Of a DNA stretch of 64,000 nt, positions 48,668 to 59,095 are shown piece after piece. The number at the start of each line of letters is the position of its first letter. The first letter of the stretch is position 1. The DNA is from Oligoflexus sp. Lineage in GTDB: Bacteria; Bdellovibrionota_B; Oligoflexia; Oligoflexales; Oligoflexaceae. The notes beneath the pieces are model-generated. The model had not been told where the DNA came from. It worked only from the letters and a program-made list of their open reading frames with translations, and made no database searches. The DNA lies in contig JACMOC010000083.1 of NCBI GenBank assembly GCA_014378195.1, positions 68,149 through 132,148 of the forward strand, written 5' to 3'. The position numbers were made by a program, and so were the translations under genes.

Positions 48668-49096
48668 GTGAGTAAAGTTCTGCTTTTTATACCTCAGACA
48701 GATCTTGCTGATAATGAATGCTGGCAAAGTATTCGTCAGTGGATGAAAGTTGCGGGTCTGACCTGGGATAAAGTACGCTGCACACCTGCAAGCATCTACG
48801 AGACCTCAGTGAAGCAGAATGAAGTAAAAGCCGCTCTCAATTTGTTGAGACAGGGTAGTTTTGAAAAAGTTGTCTTTGCGAAGTTGCCGGCAAATTACGA
48901 AACAAATCTGGATTGGTTGATGTTTGCCATCAGCTGCCAGACGCAAAAAGTAAAGCTGGAAACTCTCGAAGGCGAGTTGACACTGCCCCCCAGTGCTCAA
49001 AAGCTTGCTGCCCATTATAGTTCGATGTCTAAAAAAGCAGCTCAGACTCAGACTCAGACTCAAACACCGGCATCGGCTAAAAGCCAAAGTTTATAA
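48668..49096 (+). CDS. Hypothetical protein, degenerate serine-recombinase (resolvase) catalytic fold
   Basis: Hydrophobic pattern follows the resolvase N-terminal domain but lacks YxRxS and DRLxR; co-oriented with recA ahead of a shared terminator. Confidence 0.6.
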   Translation: MSKVLLFIPQTDLADNECWQSIRQWMKVAGLTWDKVRCTPASIYETSVKQNEVKAALNLLRQGSFEKVVFAKLPANYETNLDWLMFAISCQTQKVKLETLEGELTLPPSAQKLAAHYSSMSKKAAQTQTQTQTPASAKSQSL

Positions 49097-49435: not shown

Positions 49436-50326
49436 ATGCTAAACCTTACTCGTTCAGTTCTTGCGGTCATGACTTTAGCTCTTGGCGGAAGTGCAGCTTA
49501 CGCGGACTTTTTACCGCCTAACCATCTCGATCGCCAAGATAACATGCGGACTAAACGCGCCGGTACAATGTCTCAGGCGACCTTCAACGCAGTTATCGAT
49601 GAGGCTGTTGCCTACTACGGTCCGTATCTTAAAACGAACTTTGGATCTACATTTGTTGTAAACCGCAAATGGACGGACAGCACCGTTAACGCCAATGCGA
49701 CTCAATTCCTCAGCACTTGGACAGTTAATATGTACGGCGGCCTCGCTCGTCGTCCGGAAACAACGCGTGACGGATTTGCACTCGTACTATGTCATGAAAT
49801 TGGTCACCACCTCGGTGGTTATCCTTTTGTATCCTCGTGGGCTGCCGACGAAGGCCAAGCCGATTATTTCGCAACTTTGAGCTGTGCTCATGATCTCTGG
49901 AAAGATCAAACGGCAACAAACGCACTGTCGCGGAATATTATACAGGAATATCCTAAGTCGCTCTGTGACGCTGCTTGGACAAACGAAGCTGACCAAAACC
50001 TTTGCTACCGAACTATGCTTGGCGGCAAATCTTTGGCCAACCTCCTCTCCGCGCTGGGCGGCACAGTTGCTCAATACGAAACGCCTGATGCATCGATCGT
50101 TCCTAGAACCAATCACGCTCACCCCGAAGGCCAATGCCGCCTTGATACCTACATAGCAGGCGCGCTTTGTCCTCAGCAATTTGATGCCAGCGTCATCCCG
50201 GGCAAGGATTTCGGCTCAAAACGTAATTCAGCCTCTGCGGAAACAGCGTCAGGCAAATATACTTGCCTCCAGCAAGACTTCAACACAGGTTCACGTCCTC
50301 TCTGCTGGTTCAAGCCACTCCTTTAA
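49436..50326 (+). CDS. Secreted Cys-rich zinc metalloprotease
   Basis: Signal peptide AYA; VNANA, GGLAR, CHEIGHH, EGQADYFA, HP...CRLDT. Confidence 0.8.
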   Translation: MLNLTRSVLAVMTLALGGSAAYADFLPPNHLDRQDNMRTKRAGTMSQATFNAVIDEAVAYYGPYLKTNFGSTFVVNRKWTDSTVNANATQFLSTWTVNMYGGLARRPETTRDGFALVLCHEIGHHLGGYPFVSSWAADEGQADYFATLSCAHDLWKDQTATNALSRNIIQEYPKSLCDAAWTNEADQNLCYRTMLGGKSLANLLSALGGTVAQYETPDASIVPRTNHAHPEGQCRLDTYIAGALCPQQFDASVIPGKDFGSKRNSASAETASGKYTCLQQDFNTGSRPLCWFKPLL

Positions 50327-50350: not shown

Positions 50351-50387
50351 AAAGACGAGGAGCCTTCGGGCTTTCTCGTCTTTTTTT
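50351..50387 (+). terminator. Rho-independent terminator
   Basis: AAAGACGAGGAGCC-TTCG-GGCTTTCTCGTCTTTTTTT. Confidence 0.85.
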
Positions 50388-50456: not shown

Positions 50457-50483
50457 TAAAGCCCTCTAAACGTTAGCCGAAAT
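50457..50483 (+). promoter_or_regulatory. Putative sigma-28 promoter
   Basis: TAAAGCCC-N11-GCCGAAAT. Confidence 0.6.
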
Positions 50484-50599
50484 TTGAATCCCCCTCATTC
50501 GCGACCCATAATTATTTACGTGTGCCTATGGAAGTGTTGACAAGGCCTTGTGGTGACTGCTACGAACCAGGAACAGCAATCACCACAAGGCATACGCCG

Positions 50600-52348
50600 A
50601 TGAAAAAGACCGAAGGCCTCAGCCGCTATTCGTTAGGTTTGCTTGTATTCATTTTTTCACTCATCCTGTTCTATTTTACTTTTTCGTTGATTTCGCACGA
50701 TAAAAAACTAGCAGCCCCAAAGCCAGGGAGCGGCCTAACCACAAATTCTTTTTATAACTGGCGTTACCGCTCGGAGGCAGACTATCAAGGGAGCGAGGGC
50801 TCTCACATCCACGTCCTCTGTGCTGCGAGCGGGCAGTGGGAGCTTTCGCCCAGCGATGGGCTAAGTCGCCTTCAAATTGATACGTTTCGATGCAATGATC
50901 AAAACCTCGCTGAGGATGCAGCTTTTCACTTTGTCTTAAGAGATTTCACTGACGCTTCCCAGGCCGCAATCATTCGCATGTCTTCATCCCCAATCAATGC
51001 CCTCACGCTTGCCCTGGTTCGTGAGTTCGACTTTGGCGTCTCACCAGATCGAGATGAAATGAGAGTATGGAATCACGAAGAAAAGCGGCTCGATGGAGTT
51101 GTCTCAACCTTGGTAAAGGTTACCGACGATCGACCTTTCCGGTGGACCAAAACCTTTGACGGTGCATTACCATCACCTCCTTCTATCAGACACTTACTTA
51201 CGACCGAAACACATGGCCGCAGTGAAACAGTTCGCGATCTCCCCGACCTGATCGAACTCAGTAATAAAACCTTGGAAGAAATAACGACGAACGGGCAACA
51301 GATCGCGCGCGTCAGGATCGGCATCGAGATAAATCGGAAGCTTCAAAAGACGCTTTTAGCTCAAGGTCTGAGCTTACCTTTGGCATCGCCAACAGCCGAT
51401 CTTGAAATGACGCGAACAAAATTATGGAAGGAATGGATACAGTTCACTTCGAGCGGTCTCACTTCTGCAGTCCGCGTGAAAGCAGGCTCTGATGCCCTTT
51501 ATGTACAACTCAAGTTGGCCTTTCGTTCCGATCCCAAATTTGCGATCGAGTTTCGGCATGTTCTTGAGCAGTTCTCTCCCGCATCTGAAGAATTCAAACT
51601 CTTGCTCGGTGCGCTCGCCTACGCCGGGAACGGGACCGCAACCGATGTGTTGGTTGAATCAGCTATGGCCCATGCTGTCGACGAAAGTTGGCAGACGACT
51701 GTCACGCCAACTCTTGGACTCGCCACGCAACCAACCGAAAATGCGTGGCTTTACCTTGATAAAATAAGGCTTACTTCGAGCGATAAAGACCTGAGAAAAG
51801 CGGCGGAACTTGCAATGGCAAGCGAATATCATAAGGGGCTTCGCACAGAGGCGACCGAAAAGTTTGTGAAAGCTGTTTTAGCGCGTGACTCTTCTGATCC
51901 CGTATCCATCAGGAGTAAGCTCGACCTCATTGGCAATGCAGGACTGGAGAGCGAACTCCCACGTGTCGAACTTTGGGCAAAACATCAGGATGCCGGTATA
52001 CGTGGTGCTGCGGCCGAGTCCTTGCGATTGATGAAAAGTCCGGAAAGTGAGGCGCTCCTCTTGCAGTTCCTGAATGACACTGATATTGAAGTCAGAAGAA
52101 CAGCAGCCCAATCGTTACAGACCAAATCCATGAGTGCTCGCGCGATTCCGATCGCCTTGCAAATGCTAATACATCGTGAAAACCAGGACGAGCTCATTCA
52201 AGCCTCTCTAATTGAGGCGCTTTTTGAAGCCCGCTCGTTAGACCCACAGTTGCTCGAGAAAATGCGCAACATTCGCAGTTCGATCCAGGAAACTTTGAGT
52301 CCAGCCATTGCCGAGCGTTGGGCCAGTCTTGAAAAAGACTGGCGCTGA
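50600..52348 (+). CDS. Membrane-anchored HEAT/alpha-solenoid protein resembling the vitellogenin/MTP N-terminal lipid-transport region
   Basis: N-terminal TM, beta-rich region, then LLGALAYAG, LGLATQPT, AELAM, LDLIGNAG, IRGAAAESLR helical repeats. Confidence 0.65.
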   Translation: MKKTEGLSRYSLGLLVFIFSLILFYFTFSLISHDKKLAAPKPGSGLTTNSFYNWRYRSEADYQGSEGSHIHVLCAASGQWELSPSDGLSRLQIDTFRCNDQNLAEDAAFHFVLRDFTDASQAAIIRMSSSPINALTLALVREFDFGVSPDRDEMRVWNHEEKRLDGVVSTLVKVTDDRPFRWTKTFDGALPSPPSIRHLLTTETHGRSETVRDLPDLIELSNKTLEEITTNGQQIARVRIGIEINRKLQKTLLAQGLSLPLASPTADLEMTRTKLWKEWIQFTSSGLTSAVRVKAGSDALYVQLKLAFRSDPKFAIEFRHVLEQFSPASEEFKLLLGALAYAGNGTATDVLVESAMAHAVDESWQTTVTPTLGLATQPTENAWLYLDKIRLTSSDKDLRKAAELAMASEYHKGLRTEATEKFVKAVLARDSSDPVSIRSKLDLIGNAGLESELPRVELWAKHQDAGIRGAAAESLRLMKSPESEALLLQFLNDTDIEVRRTAAQSLQTKSMSARAIPIALQMLIHRENQDELIQASLIEALFEARSLDPQLLEKMRNIRSSIQETLSPAIAERWASLEKDWR

Positions 52349-52409
52349 GGCGCCGTTTAAAATGCGATGATCCGTTCAATTGTGAACGTGATTTATACGA
52401 GGAACTTTT

Positions 52410-53291
52410 ATGAAAAACTGGAAAGTTCTGTTTGGTGTGGGTATGCCTACTGCGATTATTTTCGCAGGATTTGTGGTCTCTGCCCAGGCTGAGGCCGCCG
52501 ATCGATGCAAAGCCTGGTCCTGGTCAAAAGGTGAGCGAGTCAAAGCACAGTTTGGTCTTGCGTCCCAACTGTGTGTGAACGCCATTCGCCCTGAATCTGA
52601 CGTTGTTTCGTCGGTAAAGGCCGTCGCCGGTGCAACAGGTTACCTTCTCAATGTCGGGATTCCGCTTCTCACCAGTCAAGCCACCCTCAGTTCGCCACAG
52701 GCTGATAGCGTTGATGCCTCGGGGTCACTTCTTATCTTGGGGCAGAAGGTTTGGAGTCCCTCCATTTCCCAGAAAATGCCTTTTTATGAAAAATCCTTCT
52801 CCGTGCCTGCCCTAGACAAAGAGCTGCCCTATTCCGTCGCTCTCGGTCCAGTCACAGTGAATCTCCAAGCCGGAATTCGCGGTGAAGCTGGCATTGATAT
52901 CAAAGCCACGGCAGGCCTCGCGCAGCTTACTGCTTCGCTCAGGCCCCATTTTGATACCAGTGCTTATGCACTCGTCCAAGCCGATGTTGTTATCGTCAAA
53001 GCAGGCATACAGGGCGACCTGACCTTTGCCAAAGGTGAGGGAAAACTTGAGGGGTCAACGCAATTGGTGAGTCGCGATACAGGTGTATTTTTAACGGGTG
53101 GAGTCAAAGCCACCTACGATATCAACCTACTTCGCGGATCGGTCAAAGTTTTTGCGGATCCGTTCGAAGTGGCTTTGGGCGACGCAAACACGGCCCATGC
53201 ATGGGAGGCTGTTTTGTATGCATACGATGGTTTTACTTACCGAGGCACTGCGTTTGAATATAATATTCCCAATGTTTTAGTCTCAAATTAA
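52410..53291 (+). CDS. Secreted beta-rich protein
   Basis: SD GAGG; signal peptide AQA; long run of amphipathic beta-strands. Confidence 0.7.
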   Translation: MKNWKVLFGVGMPTAIIFAGFVVSAQAEAADRCKAWSWSKGERVKAQFGLASQLCVNAIRPESDVVSSVKAVAGATGYLLNVGIPLLTSQATLSSPQADSVDASGSLLILGQKVWSPSISQKMPFYEKSFSVPALDKELPYSVALGPVTVNLQAGIRGEAGIDIKATAGLAQLTASLRPHFDTSAYALVQADVVIVKAGIQGDLTFAKGEGKLEGSTQLVSRDTGVFLTGGVKATYDINLLRGSVKVFADPFEVALGDANTAHAWEAVLYAYDGFTYRGTAFEYNIPNVLVSN

Positions 53292-53319: not shown

Positions 53320-54195
53320 TCACAGCTGGCCCAGACTGCTCTCCCGAGCATGCTGGGCTTTTTTTACTTCATCCTCGTAACGCCTGATCGTCAAAAGATA
53401 AAACATTCGTAATACAAAAATAGGAACCATCAGCTGAATGGTGGCTTCCTTCACGGACACGCCGCCGTCTTTAAAGAAATAATGCCCGGCCGTACCGAGG
53501 ACACCGGACGAAAAAAAGAGGGCAAGCCAGTAAGGGTTCCTGGTGATCAACGCAAGGAATGGACTGCCAAAAAAGAAGAGCATCGATACAAAGTGAAACC
53601 AAAAATTACCGGATTTGGTATGACGTAAAACGAAACGGTTCCAATCGGATAGCCGATTCGTTGTTGGGTATTCAGAACTGGGTTTGTCGCTCGGTATAAA
53701 AGCGCTTTGGCTCTCTAGCCTAAGCAGGATTTGCGATGTAAGTATAAAACCGATCAGCGGATCGAGTGTTTGAAAGATTTGGGAACTAGTGGGGATATGT
53801 TTCCAAGCGACGAGCGCAAGCCTCACTGGAACCGGCGCAAAAACACCACTCGCATCAAGTTCTTCCAAGCTTAGATAATCGCTGAGGAAGGTGTTCCCGA
53901 GAGGACAATTGAGGCGATCACGCCAACAGATTGCAAGGCTCGAGCCGTCGAGAGGTTTGAAGCTTTCCCCTCTATCCGGGCGGCACTGTTTGTGAATAAA
54001 AAGTCTAAGCCACCTTGGGTGTGTCTTGAATCCGTCGAAAGGCGCTTTGAGTACCCAGATCTGTGCGTGGAGTGACTGAGTAAAAGTCTCAGGAATTGGG
54101 CTCATATTGGGAATGGAGACGCGCTCCGACTCGCCTCGGAGGTAGCTTGCTAAATAGGTCGCGGATTTTTGAAGGCCGACGCTATCTTTGCTCAT
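53320..54195 (-). CDS. Protein with C-terminal DUF962/Mpo1-like membrane domain
   Basis: F...H....N...H followed by TM segments and GH.FF. Confidence 0.55.
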   Translation of the reverse strand: MSKDSVGLQKSATYLASYLRGESERVSIPNMSPIPETFTQSLHAQIWVLKAPFDGFKTHPRWLRLFIHKQCRPDRGESFKPLDGSSLAICWRDRLNCPLGNTFLSDYLSLEELDASGVFAPVPVRLALVAWKHIPTSSQIFQTLDPLIGFILTSQILLRLESQSAFIPSDKPSSEYPTTNRLSDWNRFVLRHTKSGNFWFHFVSMLFFFGSPFLALITRNPYWLALFFSSGVLGTAGHYFFKDGGVSVKEATIQLMVPIFVLRMFYLLTIRRYEDEVKKAQHARESSLGQL

Positions 54196-56104: not shown

Positions 56105-59095
56105 CTAAAGGGTAATAGATCCCAATGCCCCTTTCGACGTCCAGATCATATTGCTATTGGCGTTTACGATCTGAAAGGAGCCATCATTCATCAACATTAC
56201 GCGCTCGCCGGAGTTCGAATAGGTGCCTGACGCCCAGAGAGGCTGGTTTTTAATATCGTAAATCACAAAATTACCATCCGCTTGCATCGTCGCGCGAACA
56301 GCGCCCCGCACTTCCGTGAAGCTTGCCCAGAGCGCCCTTTGATTTTTGTCGTAAAGGACAAGGTTTCCGTCGTTTTGATAACTGAGGGTATAATTACCGT
56401 CGGTTGAACAGAGGCGTTGGCCCTGCTTAAGGTCTTCGCCTTTCTCTAAAACACTGCTGCAGCCCTTGGCATCGGCAGCCAGGAAAGGCTCCCAGGTTTT
56501 ATCAAAAAAATCGGCGTGAATGAGAGTAAACCTCGTTTCCTCACCTTTAAAAGACACGATGTCTTTATCGACGGTTTTCCAACCGAAGTGGCAAGGGTAG
56601 GGGAATATCCAAGCCTTACACCAGCTAAATCCCCAGTATTCGGCAAAAACATAAAGGCGGCCGCCTAACCACGCTAGGTCGAGCGAGGTATCAAAATTTG
56701 CATTAGCCTTGAGGGCCATGACAGTTCTTCGAGCCCCGTCTGCCCTCCGAACGATCAACTGATAGTTTCCTGCTTTCGCACTGAGTGTTACTGGTAAAGC
56801 AAGTTCTACGATTCGCATTTCGCCGCCGACGCCTATGCGTGCGATTATGATGCCGATAGAAACCTGCCCGCGACCACTGGCAGCAAGCGCCGGAACGAAA
56901 TAGAGGCCGACGGCCGCCACGCGTTTTCCGCCCGGATAGGTGGCTTTTTCTTCGGGATAGGGCGCCCGCACGCGCGCATAGGCACCCATGCCGAGGTATG
57001 CCCCAAGTTCGCCGCAAACGTCGATTGAGACTGTAATGATGTAGACGGGCACGCTCGCACCTGCACAGAGTTCTTTCACAAAAAGGGCACTCGGTTTGTT
57101 GTGAATGTCCCCCTTATTGACGATTTGAGGCGCGTCTAGAAGATTCGCTGATTTTTCGATAGTCGCCGTTACACTTTTGTCTACCGTTTTATTGTGACCG
57201 TTGTCACCAAACCATTTTTCAAGTGGAAGCGAATATTCATAGTCGGCGGCCATCAGCATGCGTGAGCCGTAAATCTTGACTCCAAACGCTTTAATCGAAG
57301 GTTCAAGATAGTGTTGATCGGCTCCCGTAAGATCAAGGAACATTTCCAGATCCGCTGCAAAGAGATCCGTTTTGAGATAGCCTTGTGTTCGAATTCCCGA
57401 ACCGATTCGCGCCGATATTTTATTCGCCGACATCACGAGATGCGGACCTGCATCAAAACTCACGCGCAATTTATTTTGGTCACCCCACGCGCCTCCCCAG
57501 GACTTTTGATAGTCAGCGACAGGGTTCACAACTTTAAGGGAGGTGTCTTCGTAGGATGTATCACACTCACCATCACTATCAAGAGTCGAATCCTTAGCCG
57601 AGCAAACGTGGGTGTTGGTCGGCTCGGTCTCCTCGGATTTAAAAACGGGAAATATCATGCAGTTATCGGCTGTTGCGTCGCCATTGGTCGCCTGGGAATC
57701 GAGGTTCACCTCGGTGACGGTCTGGTCGTTTTTGAAAATCGTGGCACACGCTTTGATTCGAAAAAAAGTCTCGTTTCCCCAGACGCCTTCGTCAGCAGTT
57801 GACAAGGCTTTGTAGCTTGAGCCGAGGGCATGGACGAGTGCGGAGAAATTGAGCGATTCTTCGTTTTTGAAACCTGTGAGATCCTGAGTTGTTTTCAGTT
57901 TATCCAGCTCTGTCTGACCGGGGCTTAAAAGAGCGGACAGTGGTTGCCACCCTGGACCATCGCAGGGCGCAGTGAGAGTGTCGGATCCGCCATCGCCGGC
58001 ACAGATGGAGTAGCTGATTTGCGCTTTGTAGTGAGCGAGGTCTTCAGCTGCAGCGCCTTCAAGGACAAGCGAACCACTGGTTGTAGCAAGGGGCGAAGGC
58101 AACGTGTGATTGGTTTTATAAAGAGCAGCGGGATCTTTGTAGGGAAGCACCACGAGCGATGAGTCACTGGTAAAATCAGTCATCTTGATATTAACGCCTG
58201 GCGATTTTTCAATCAGAATTTCGTTCTGACATGCAGTGGAATTTTTATCAAATCTTAGACAAAGTCCGTTGGCACTTGTGGTTTCTTTATCAAGAGCTAC
58301 AAAGATCGGGGCGTTTGAATCGCCTGATTGAACTGCGCCGTCGGGATTAAAAACCATGGTTATGATCATACGGGCAGATCCGGTATCGCCCAGGCAGGAT
58401 TCGGGAATTTTGAGGTCAGCTTGGAAAAGCTCGCTGCCGGATCCATGTACGGATCCGTCATGTACCGCAGATGCCGACCCAATTGCGCAGGATCGCAATT
58501 CTTTATAACGTTCTTTGGGAAAATTGAGGGGTGGCGCCTCCACAAGTCCAAAACTCACGAGCATTTTTGAAGCGTCGCCTTCAATATTAAGTCCAAATCG
58601 GACACTGAGAGGGAACCCTGTATAGAAGTGGGAGCCATGACCGGATGCAAACTGCAAGTCAGATATTTTGCGGGTGGACTGCGCATAGGTAGAAAGAGGC
58701 GTTGAGAGACTTTCGCTGGTTGCGGCACGAACCGAAGGTGAGGACGGCGAAGAATTCTGGGGCGAGCTGGAGTCAGGCATGGATGCAAAGGCAGCTGACA
58801 CCGCAGTTGCTACATCCGAGGTCGACTTGGCTTTGGCTCTGGATTCATCATTGATGGGAGGAATGATGGAGATCGAGTCAATGGCCACTTGATAGCTGGT
58901 AACAGGGTACTTGATAGCAGGAGTATAGGAGTCGTGATCTGGATTGCTTGAAGCTGAAGGGGGAGTTGTGCCGTTACCGGGTGGGCCAGGTGGAGCAGGG
59001 GCCGATCCGGGCGGGCTTCCGTGTTCTGATTCTCGACAGGAAAGGGTGAAAAGTGCTAGGACAAACAGCAAATTGGTCAATTTTGATAAGCTCAT
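56105..59095 (-). CDS. Large lipoprotein with beta-sheet domain and C-terminal bulb-type (mannose-binding) lectin
   Basis: Lipobox TLSC, Pro/Ser linker, Cys-rich middle; YQNDGNLVLY and MQADGNFVIY (QxDxNxVxY), W.S motifs. Confidence 0.8.
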   Translation of the reverse strand: MSLSKLTNLLFVLALFTLSCRESEHGSPPGSAPAPPGPPGNGTTPPSASSNPDHDSYTPAIKYPVTSYQVAIDSISIIPPINDESRAKAKSTSDVATAVSAAFASMPDSSSPQNSSPSSPSVRAATSESLSTPLSTYAQSTRKISDLQFASGHGSHFYTGFPLSVRFGLNIEGDASKMLVSFGLVEAPPLNFPKERYKELRSCAIGSASAVHDGSVHGSGSELFQADLKIPESCLGDTGSARMIITMVFNPDGAVQSGDSNAPIFVALDKETTSANGLCLRFDKNSTACQNEILIEKSPGVNIKMTDFTSDSSLVVLPYKDPAALYKTNHTLPSPLATTSGSLVLEGAAAEDLAHYKAQISYSICAGDGGSDTLTAPCDGPGWQPLSALLSPGQTELDKLKTTQDLTGFKNEESLNFSALVHALGSSYKALSTADEGVWGNETFFRIKACATIFKNDQTVTEVNLDSQATNGDATADNCMIFPVFKSEETEPTNTHVCSAKDSTLDSDGECDTSYEDTSLKVVNPVADYQKSWGGAWGDQNKLRVSFDAGPHLVMSANKISARIGSGIRTQGYLKTDLFAADLEMFLDLTGADQHYLEPSIKAFGVKIYGSRMLMAADYEYSLPLEKWFGDNGHNKTVDKSVTATIEKSANLLDAPQIVNKGDIHNKPSALFVKELCAGASVPVYIITVSIDVCGELGAYLGMGAYARVRAPYPEEKATYPGGKRVAAVGLYFVPALAASGRGQVSIGIIIARIGVGGEMRIVELALPVTLSAKAGNYQLIVRRADGARRTVMALKANANFDTSLDLAWLGGRLYVFAEYWGFSWCKAWIFPYPCHFGWKTVDKDIVSFKGEETRFTLIHADFFDKTWEPFLAADAKGCSSVLEKGEDLKQGQRLCSTDGNYTLSYQNDGNLVLYDKNQRALWASFTEVRGAVRATMQADGNFVIYDIKNQPLWASGTYSNSGERVMLMNDGSFQIVNANSNMIWTSKGALGSITL

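Follow-up and report, generated by a model that had tools for sequence, protein, structure and literature searches.

Do bacteria possess a counterpart of the large lipid transfer proteins (LLTPs), which build lipoproteins and yolk in animals? The textbook view is that the lipid-transfer module common to MTP, vitellogenin and apoB is an animal invention. The question is raised by two adjacent genes, hereafter gene 1 and gene 2, in a 64,000-nucleotide stretch of DNA from Oligoflexus sp. (the window; contig JACMOC010000083.1, in our numbering C57:68149-132148). The genome is 82% complete, its nearest named relatives are Oligoflexus metagenome genomes, and a glacier metagenome, the sole sequencing run listed with the window DNA, may be its source; no RNA run is listed. 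An earlier note, made from the letters alone, had proposed that the two genes are the two halves of an LLTP, in the same order. Our results bear this out for gene 1, through both structure and profile homology, while for gene 2 they are suggestive only. We propose that the two proteins form a periplasmic heterodimer, a two-piece bacterial version of the MTP/vitellogenin/apoB lipid-transfer module, and we give this proposal about an even chance of being right.

The AlphaFold2 (AF2) model of the gene 1 protein (mean predicted local distance difference test score, pLDDT, 71) consists of three parts, a helix at residues 10-29, strands at 50-246 and helices at 268-581. This is the succession of membrane anchor, beta-rich N-region and alpha-solenoid that had been read from the letters. 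The two open reading frames (ORFs) and their 61-nt gap likewise agree with our ORF listing and translation, and the motifs quoted from them are all present in the order given (LLGALAYAG, LGLATQPT, LRKAAELAM, LDLIGNAG..LP and IRGAAAESLR in gene 1; GPVTVNLQAG, LRP and ADVVIVKAGI in gene 2). As modelled, the chain would form a half beta-barrel around a helix and then a two-layer helical horseshoe, the fold that we take as the mark of an LLTP; a pass by the Vitellogenin_N model (PF01347) serves for detection and does not define the superfamily. When the model was compared with the PDB by Foldseek, ranks 1-11 were all occupied by LLTPs, including MTP (6i7s, E 4e-13), lipovitellin (1lsh, 2.7e-12), apoB100 (1.6e-9) and bee vitellogenin (1.2e-8), and VIA-align superposed residues 45-534 of the model on residues 29-576 of MTP.

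Searches with the gene 1 sequence itself returned helical repeats. In Pfam (hmmscan, E up to 10) only HEAT families were found, among them HEAT_2 (PF13646) with 41.8 bits at residues 460-541, which passes the gathering score of 27.7 bits and spans only 14% of the protein. No usable NCBIfam match was obtained, Vitellogenin_N (gathering score 24 bits) did not match gene 1 in hmmscan at E up to 10 or in a six-frame search of the genome, and among PDB sequences a profile of the gene 1 orthologues matched alphaRep and PBS-lyase chains alone. Gene 1 might then be an ordinary HEAT-repeat protein whose strand-rich N-domain is unrelated, the likeness to LLTPs arising from the helical repeats alone and the neighbouring gene being unrelated as well. 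We consider this highly improbable, and it is already largely refuted. Generic repeat proteins start near 1e-4 in the Foldseek ranking, eight orders of magnitude behind the LLTPs. HEAT_2, PBS-lyase and alphaRep proteins have neither the N-terminal barrel nor the family motifs nor the sheet-protein neighbour, and generic HEAT proteins match the gene 1 family model at positions 460-590 only. Relatives from the same class, retrieved with the orthologue profile, do pass Vitellogenin_N: L023 with 54.5 bits (profile positions 88-547 of 590) and L019 with 49.5 bits (36-536), both matches beginning inside the barrel part; the scores of L016, L018, L038 and L039 lie at 26-39 bits. An hhalign comparison of the gene 1 orthologues with six bacterial proteins that pass Vitellogenin_N gave 99.9% (E 3e-32) over 495 columns, with the query aligned from residue 56 to 559. 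The linkage of the gene pair across phyla, described below, also speaks against an ordinary HEAT protein with a chance neighbour.

The nearest ESM Atlas clusters point the same way. They contain bacterial proteins of 520-670 aa with both HEAT_2 and Vitellogenin_N (scores 0.95-0.97; PF01347 in 12-75% of members), and a eukaryotic MTP cluster is found among the structural neighbours of gene 1. Because of the Foldseek ranks, these clusters, the Vitellogenin_N-passing relatives, the hhalign alignment and the restriction of HEAT proteins to positions 460-590, we take it as established in silico that gene 1 is homologous to the LLTP front module. The link to Vitellogenin_N that had been anticipated is thus indirect: the direct Pfam match is to HEAT_2 only, while the homology runs through relatives that pass Vitellogenin_N, over 495 columns that include the barrel. 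In a control search, PF01347 also gave matches in Synechococcus elongatus and Methanosarcina acetivorans, above the cut-off in one of them; the model therefore cross-reacts with HEAT repeats, and a PF01347 match confined to the helical part is by itself no evidence of LLTP kinship. A word-index search with a broad gene 1 alignment was overrun with generic HEAT proteins and brought no further relatives.

The gene 2 protein has its own Sec-type signal peptide and is strand-rich after residue 87; the earlier note had described a signal peptide and an almost wholly beta-stranded chain. Judged from their sequences both proteins are exported, which places them together in the periplasm, and both contain conserved cysteine pairs. 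No match to gene 2 was found in Pfam (E up to 10), in NCBIfam or by profile search of the PDB. It nevertheless belongs to a large family: among 1.8 billion representatives a profile search retrieved 431 proteins at E 0.001 or better, 88 of them at 1e-10 or better. These relatives mostly have 450-550 aa, match in their C-terminal half and belong to no Pfam family. Our own AF2 model of gene 2 is poor (pLDDT 40), and the structural comparison relies on the ESM Atlas model (predicted template-modelling score, pTM, 0.55). Among unannotated neighbours the nearest to this model are bacterial (template-modelling score, TM, 0.75-0.77); among annotated ones, two MTP clusters come first (TM by query 0.56 and 0.54, over 221-223 residues) and a vitellogenin cluster next (0.51). 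Against the Pfam sheet-domain models, three of 126 family members weakly match Vit_open_b-sht (PF09172; best E 0.017) and none of the 126 matches MTP_lip_bd (PF19444). The modelled resemblance of gene 2 to the MTP/vitellogenin pocket is suggestive, not conclusive; that gene 2 is the counterpart of the LLTP pocket sheets is suggested by independent hints, not proven.

A different role for gene 2 would be that of an exported beta-hairpin pore former or toxin, with gene 1 as its membrane-bound chaperone, immunity protein or activator. We think this improbable: the structural matches in question come from the pLDDT 40 model and do not rise above background, sequence searches recognised no toxin family (MACPF, CDC or other), and the ESM Atlas model, the better of the two, leads to MTP and vitellogenin.

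An N-terminal extension of about 190 aa is found in most gene 2 relatives (P0017, P0019, P0021 and some 70 further representatives); it bears a small conserved motif with the consensus ...PFKPFEMKDPKTGK..ITLPNGKKVTAGEYFAELNELEKKLN..GYSLR. In L039:523-1044 a separate gene of 173 aa occupies the position of this extension. The extension belongs to no Pfam family, and a model of it finds no match in the present genome, which ruled out the 296-aa gene upstream of gene 1 as the missing piece. Three kilobases from the pair, at 56105-59095 on the minus strand of the window, a putative lipoprotein of 996 aa (N-terminus ...LFTLSC) contains a gene 2-type sheet domain, recognised by the family model in two pieces, at residues 531-649 and 729-866. 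The link is through the family model only, pairwise BLASTP with gene 2 being not significant. A bulb-type lectin domain (B_lectin, 899-956) follows the sheet domain, and a similar lectin protein occupies the same place in relatives.

The two gene families travel together. Within the genus the order EI24 - recA - 137 aa - 293 aa - gene 1 - gene 2 is kept. Among 131 genomes of the phylum, in which all matches fell in the class of the window, a gene 2-type ORF lies beside the gene 1-type ORF in 25 of the 30 best loci, in one of three arrangements: downstream, immediately upstream or divergent. On the distant contigs L038 (with planctomycete-type neighbours), L039 and L040, a sheet gene directly precedes a gene 1-type protein of 439-664 aa; the gene 1 family model matches these proteins with E 3e-94, 8e-77 and 5e-42, and Vitellogenin_N matches those of L038 and L039 only. 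The present genome holds 13 gene 1-type paralogues, five of them with an adjacent gene 2-type gene, so that the expected conservation of the pair is found across the class, on distant contigs and at five places in one genome. The four further pairs (C68:256754-259648, C28:11423-14838, C29:180981-184167 and C16:69973-73606) all have the sheet gene first; the paralogues have 594-643 aa, and eight are without a detectable sheet neighbour at E 0.001. No fusion of gene 1 and gene 2 occurs among 150 representatives of the gene 2 family, and none of 176 proteins matched both family models, longer proteins not having been searched specifically.

A confident heterodimer, as had been supposed, is predicted for the two proteins. 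With gene 1 residues 45-582 (20-row alignment) and gene 2 residues 29-293 (126-row alignment) as inputs, the interface score ipSAE was 0.88, 0.88 and 0.89, compared with 0.00 for the best of three controls. The mark is reached by 58 of 80 solved complexes and by two of 110 mismatched pairs, counts that are rough here because our own alignments were used. At least 61% of the contacts are common to the runs, and the partner pLDDT is at least 75. Gene 2 is placed by the model in the concave face of the helical clamp of gene 1; the confidently predicted contacts all lie on successive helices of gene 1 (294-582) and, on the gene 2 side, at 35-53, 106-138 and 157-208. The predicted interface holds residues conserved family-wide (G445, N446, R476 and L404 of gene 1; G111, D136 and Y186 of gene 2), and the orthologues conserve interface positions more strongly than the others, with 0.82 vs 0.71 for gene 2 (p 8e-4) and 0.77 vs 0.67 for gene 1 (p 0.002).

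A possible working of the heterodimer may be drawn from these models. Gene 1 would be held in the inner membrane by its N-terminal signal anchor, and its periplasmic part would expose the beta-barrel and then the two-layer helical horseshoe. Gene 2, exported separately by Sec, would dock in the concave face with its conserved GQKVW and PALD loops, which are predicted to lie against the helices bearing LLGALAYAG, AELAM and LDLIGNAG. The clamp would then hold two amphipathic sheets, as the helical domain of MTP does its A- and C-sheets. We infer that these sheets enclose an apolar space, and that this cavity would bind lipid, or another hydrophobic molecule of the envelope, and pass it among inner membrane, periplasm and outer membrane.

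Several observations weigh against so direct a reading. In MTP the C- and A-sheets are gripped on one side by the helical clamp (PMC6717300); the geometry predicted here is the same, so the complex score may owe something to a memory of LLTP structures. The confident predicted contacts are between proteins only. The gene 2-type domain forms the C-terminal part of many larger proteins, which extend N-terminally by 160-590 aa; in P0086 it is joined to Ig-like domains, and it occurs in the lectin-tipped 996-aa lipoprotein (E 4.5e-15, residues 531-866). The pair could thus be a docking clamp and not a lipid carrier: gene 1-type scaffolds would grip a shared beta-sheet handle, which elsewhere tethers lectins, Ig-like domains and cysteine-rich giants to the envelope, and gene 2 would be the minimal handle. 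Function would then lie in protein anchoring or assembly, the kinship of gene 1 to LLTPs being real all the same, and 13 gene 1-type paralogues would suit many different clients. While we take this alternative seriously, we rate it as unlikely: it leaves unexplained why the nearest annotated structural neighbours of the handle are MTP and vitellogenin clusters, and why the genus keeps a minimal, tail-less gene 2 together with gene 1. Docking and lipid carriage are moreover compatible and do not exclude each other.

The two-piece lipid-transfer module that we favour is best compared with MTP. The alpha subunit of MTP (PDB 6I7S, 8EOJ), the smallest LLTP, has a half beta-barrel (21-297), a 17-helix two-layer domain (298-603) clamping the sheets and, for lipid binding, a two-sheet domain (604-884; PMC6717300). 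The Oligoflexus parts come in the same order and are of similar size: barrel at 50-246, about 20 helices at 268-581 and a mature sheet protein of about 265 aa, against 281 aa for MTP's C-terminal domain (PMC6717300). MTP also heads the Foldseek list for gene 1 and is the nearest annotated structural neighbour of gene 2, and the predicted seat of gene 2 in the concave face of the helical domain agrees with it. The differences are equally clear. The module is spread over two genes and two polypeptides, gene 1 ending one residue after its last helix, so that the A- and C-sheets are not part of the same chain. It would sit in a bacterial inner membrane, facing the periplasm, whereas MTP is soluble in the lumen of the endoplasmic reticulum, and a PDI partner is lacking. 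The sequences are about 12% identical, gene 1 staying under the Pfam threshold and gene 2 without a significant sequence match, and no confident contact between barrel and A-sheet is seen in the predicted complex.

Lipovitellin/vitellogenin and apoB-100 (PDB 1LSH, 9ENS, 9BD1, 9E9R) likewise share the N-terminal barrel and helical module (Foldseek E 2.7e-12 to 3e-7), and their L.ALGNAG motif is present in the alignment consensus of the bacterial family, reading LDLIGNAG in gene 1. These animal proteins, however, are carriers of 1,000-4,500 aa that are secreted and have much larger lipid cavities, and their vWD, DUF1943 and apoB beta-belt are missing here. The closest kin are bacterial PF01347 proteins labelled 'HEAT repeat / lipoprotein amino terminal region domain-containing' (Myxococcota, Planctomycetota, Pseudomonadota). 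Gene 1 is a member of this family, whose L038 and L039 proteins are matched over their full length and also adjoin a gene 2-type gene. Elsewhere in the family the sheet gene usually comes first and the clamp gene second, the sheet protein carrying the N-terminal extension of about 190 aa, whereas the Oligoflexus genes follow the order of the animal domains, with a sheet protein of minimal form.

The features of the locus are collected in Table 1. Orthologues of gene 1 and gene 2 with 40-70% identity in Oligoflexus metagenome genomes indicate that both are real genes. A longer frame with a GTG start at 50522 is unlikely to be used for gene 1, since the orthologues start at MKKT or MMKT. No convincing terminator was found in the spacer at 52349-52409, and gene 1 and gene 2 are therefore probably transcribed together; with the terminator upstream and a convergent gene downstream, the pair forms its own unit.

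Table 1. Coordinates of the two-gene unit and its elements (positions in the window)
Feature	Position	Strand	Description
Intrinsic terminator of upstream 296-aa gene	50359..50385	+	Stem-loop GGAGCC-TTCG-GGCTTT, then T run; 5' boundary of the two-gene unit
Sigma-28-like motif TAAA-N15-GCCGAAAT	50457..50483	+	Candidate promoter only
Sigma-70-like hexamers TTGAAT-17-CATAAT (9/12)	50484..50512	+	Alternative candidate promoter; such matches are about as frequent in shuffled sequence
Gene 1	50600..52348	+	582 aa; ATG start, stop at 52348; predicted inner-membrane-anchored periplasmic protein, homologous to LLTP N-terminal module (barrel + helical clamp)
Gene 1 signal anchor, residues 10-29	50627..50686	+	Single hydrophobic helix, no AXA cleavage site after it; helix in AF2 model; position conserved in orthologues
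Gene 1 strand-rich domain, residues 50-246	50747..51337	+	11 strands, short helices at 113-141, two cysteines; matches LLTP beta-barrel; AF2 pLDDT about 50-79
Gene 1 two-layer helical solenoid, residues 268-581	51401..52342	+	About 20 helices (AF2); LLGALAYAG, LGLATQPT, AELAM, LDLIGNAG; HEAT_2 at 460-541; concave face is predicted docking site of gene 2
Spacer between gene 1 and gene 2	52349..52409	+	61 nt; weak 6-bp hairpin at 52373-52388 without T run
Gene 2	52410..53291	+	293 aa; predicted Sec-exported, strand-rich; large unnamed bacterial family; predicted gene 1 partner, candidate counterpart of LLTP lipid-pocket sheets
Gene 2 signal peptide, residues 1 to about 27	52410..52490	+	Sec-type: hydrophobic core, then AQA/EA; cleavage after AQA; invariant C33 and C55 follow (alignment)

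The earlier note had placed the pair under a sigma-28 promoter. A motif of this type is indeed present, but its role as a promoter is unsupported, the motif being absent within 300 nt upstream of six orthologues. In the genome as a whole, TAAA-N15-GCCGAWA occurs at 19 sites, against some 4-5 expected in random sequence by our own estimate, and four of the ten downstream ORFs examined encode FliG (C26), a methyl-accepting chemotaxis protein (C64), a receiver-GGDEF protein (C32) and an HD-GYP-like protein (C3). The motif therefore seems to have some specificity in this organism, and at 50457-50483 it is a candidate.

Around the pair, a 142-aa ORF without a Pfam match lies directly after recA (48668-49096, plus strand), with a 137-aa ORF in the same place in relatives; the position right after recA is a frequent site of recX. 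The 296-aa ORF directly upstream of gene 1 (49436-50326, plus strand) has its own terminator and weak metallopeptidase-like matches only (Reprolysin_4 E 1e-3, Peptidase_M48 E 6e-3), and its position is kept in orthologous loci (293 aa in L001-L004). Downstream, a 291-aa ORF without a family (53320-54195, minus strand) converges on gene 2. L001-L004 have a 567-aa glutamine-amidotransferase (GATase_6/7) gene where the window has this ORF, and synteny therefore ends immediately after gene 2.

No paper on LLTP-like proteins of bacteria came up in full-text literature searches, and the bacterial relatives of gene 1 carry automatic database labels only ('lipoprotein amino terminal region'). What is new at the Oligoflexus locus is the minimal sheet partner, the animal order of parts, the strong complex prediction with clean controls and the expansion of paralogues. 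MTP is considered the most ancient LLTP superfamily member (PMC6717300). It is tempting to speculate, though we hold the idea as possible and somewhat doubtful, that the LLTP module descends from an ancient and widespread bacterial periplasmic machine of two proteins, an anchored barrel-plus-clamp and an exported two-sheet pocket, and that the Oligoflexus pair is its minimal split form, carrying lipids or other hydrophobic envelope molecules across the periplasm. If true, a bacterial relative whose pocket comes from a second gene would move the origin of the module back to bacteria, and the pair would offer a small, genetically separable system for understanding how a cavity arises from a helical clamp and sheets. 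The few periplasmic carriers of hydrophobic molecules (Lol, Lpt, Mla and the bridge-like YhdP/TamB proteins) would likewise gain a new candidate. The 13 clamp paralogues in one genome further suggest a versatile system with several partners or cargoes.

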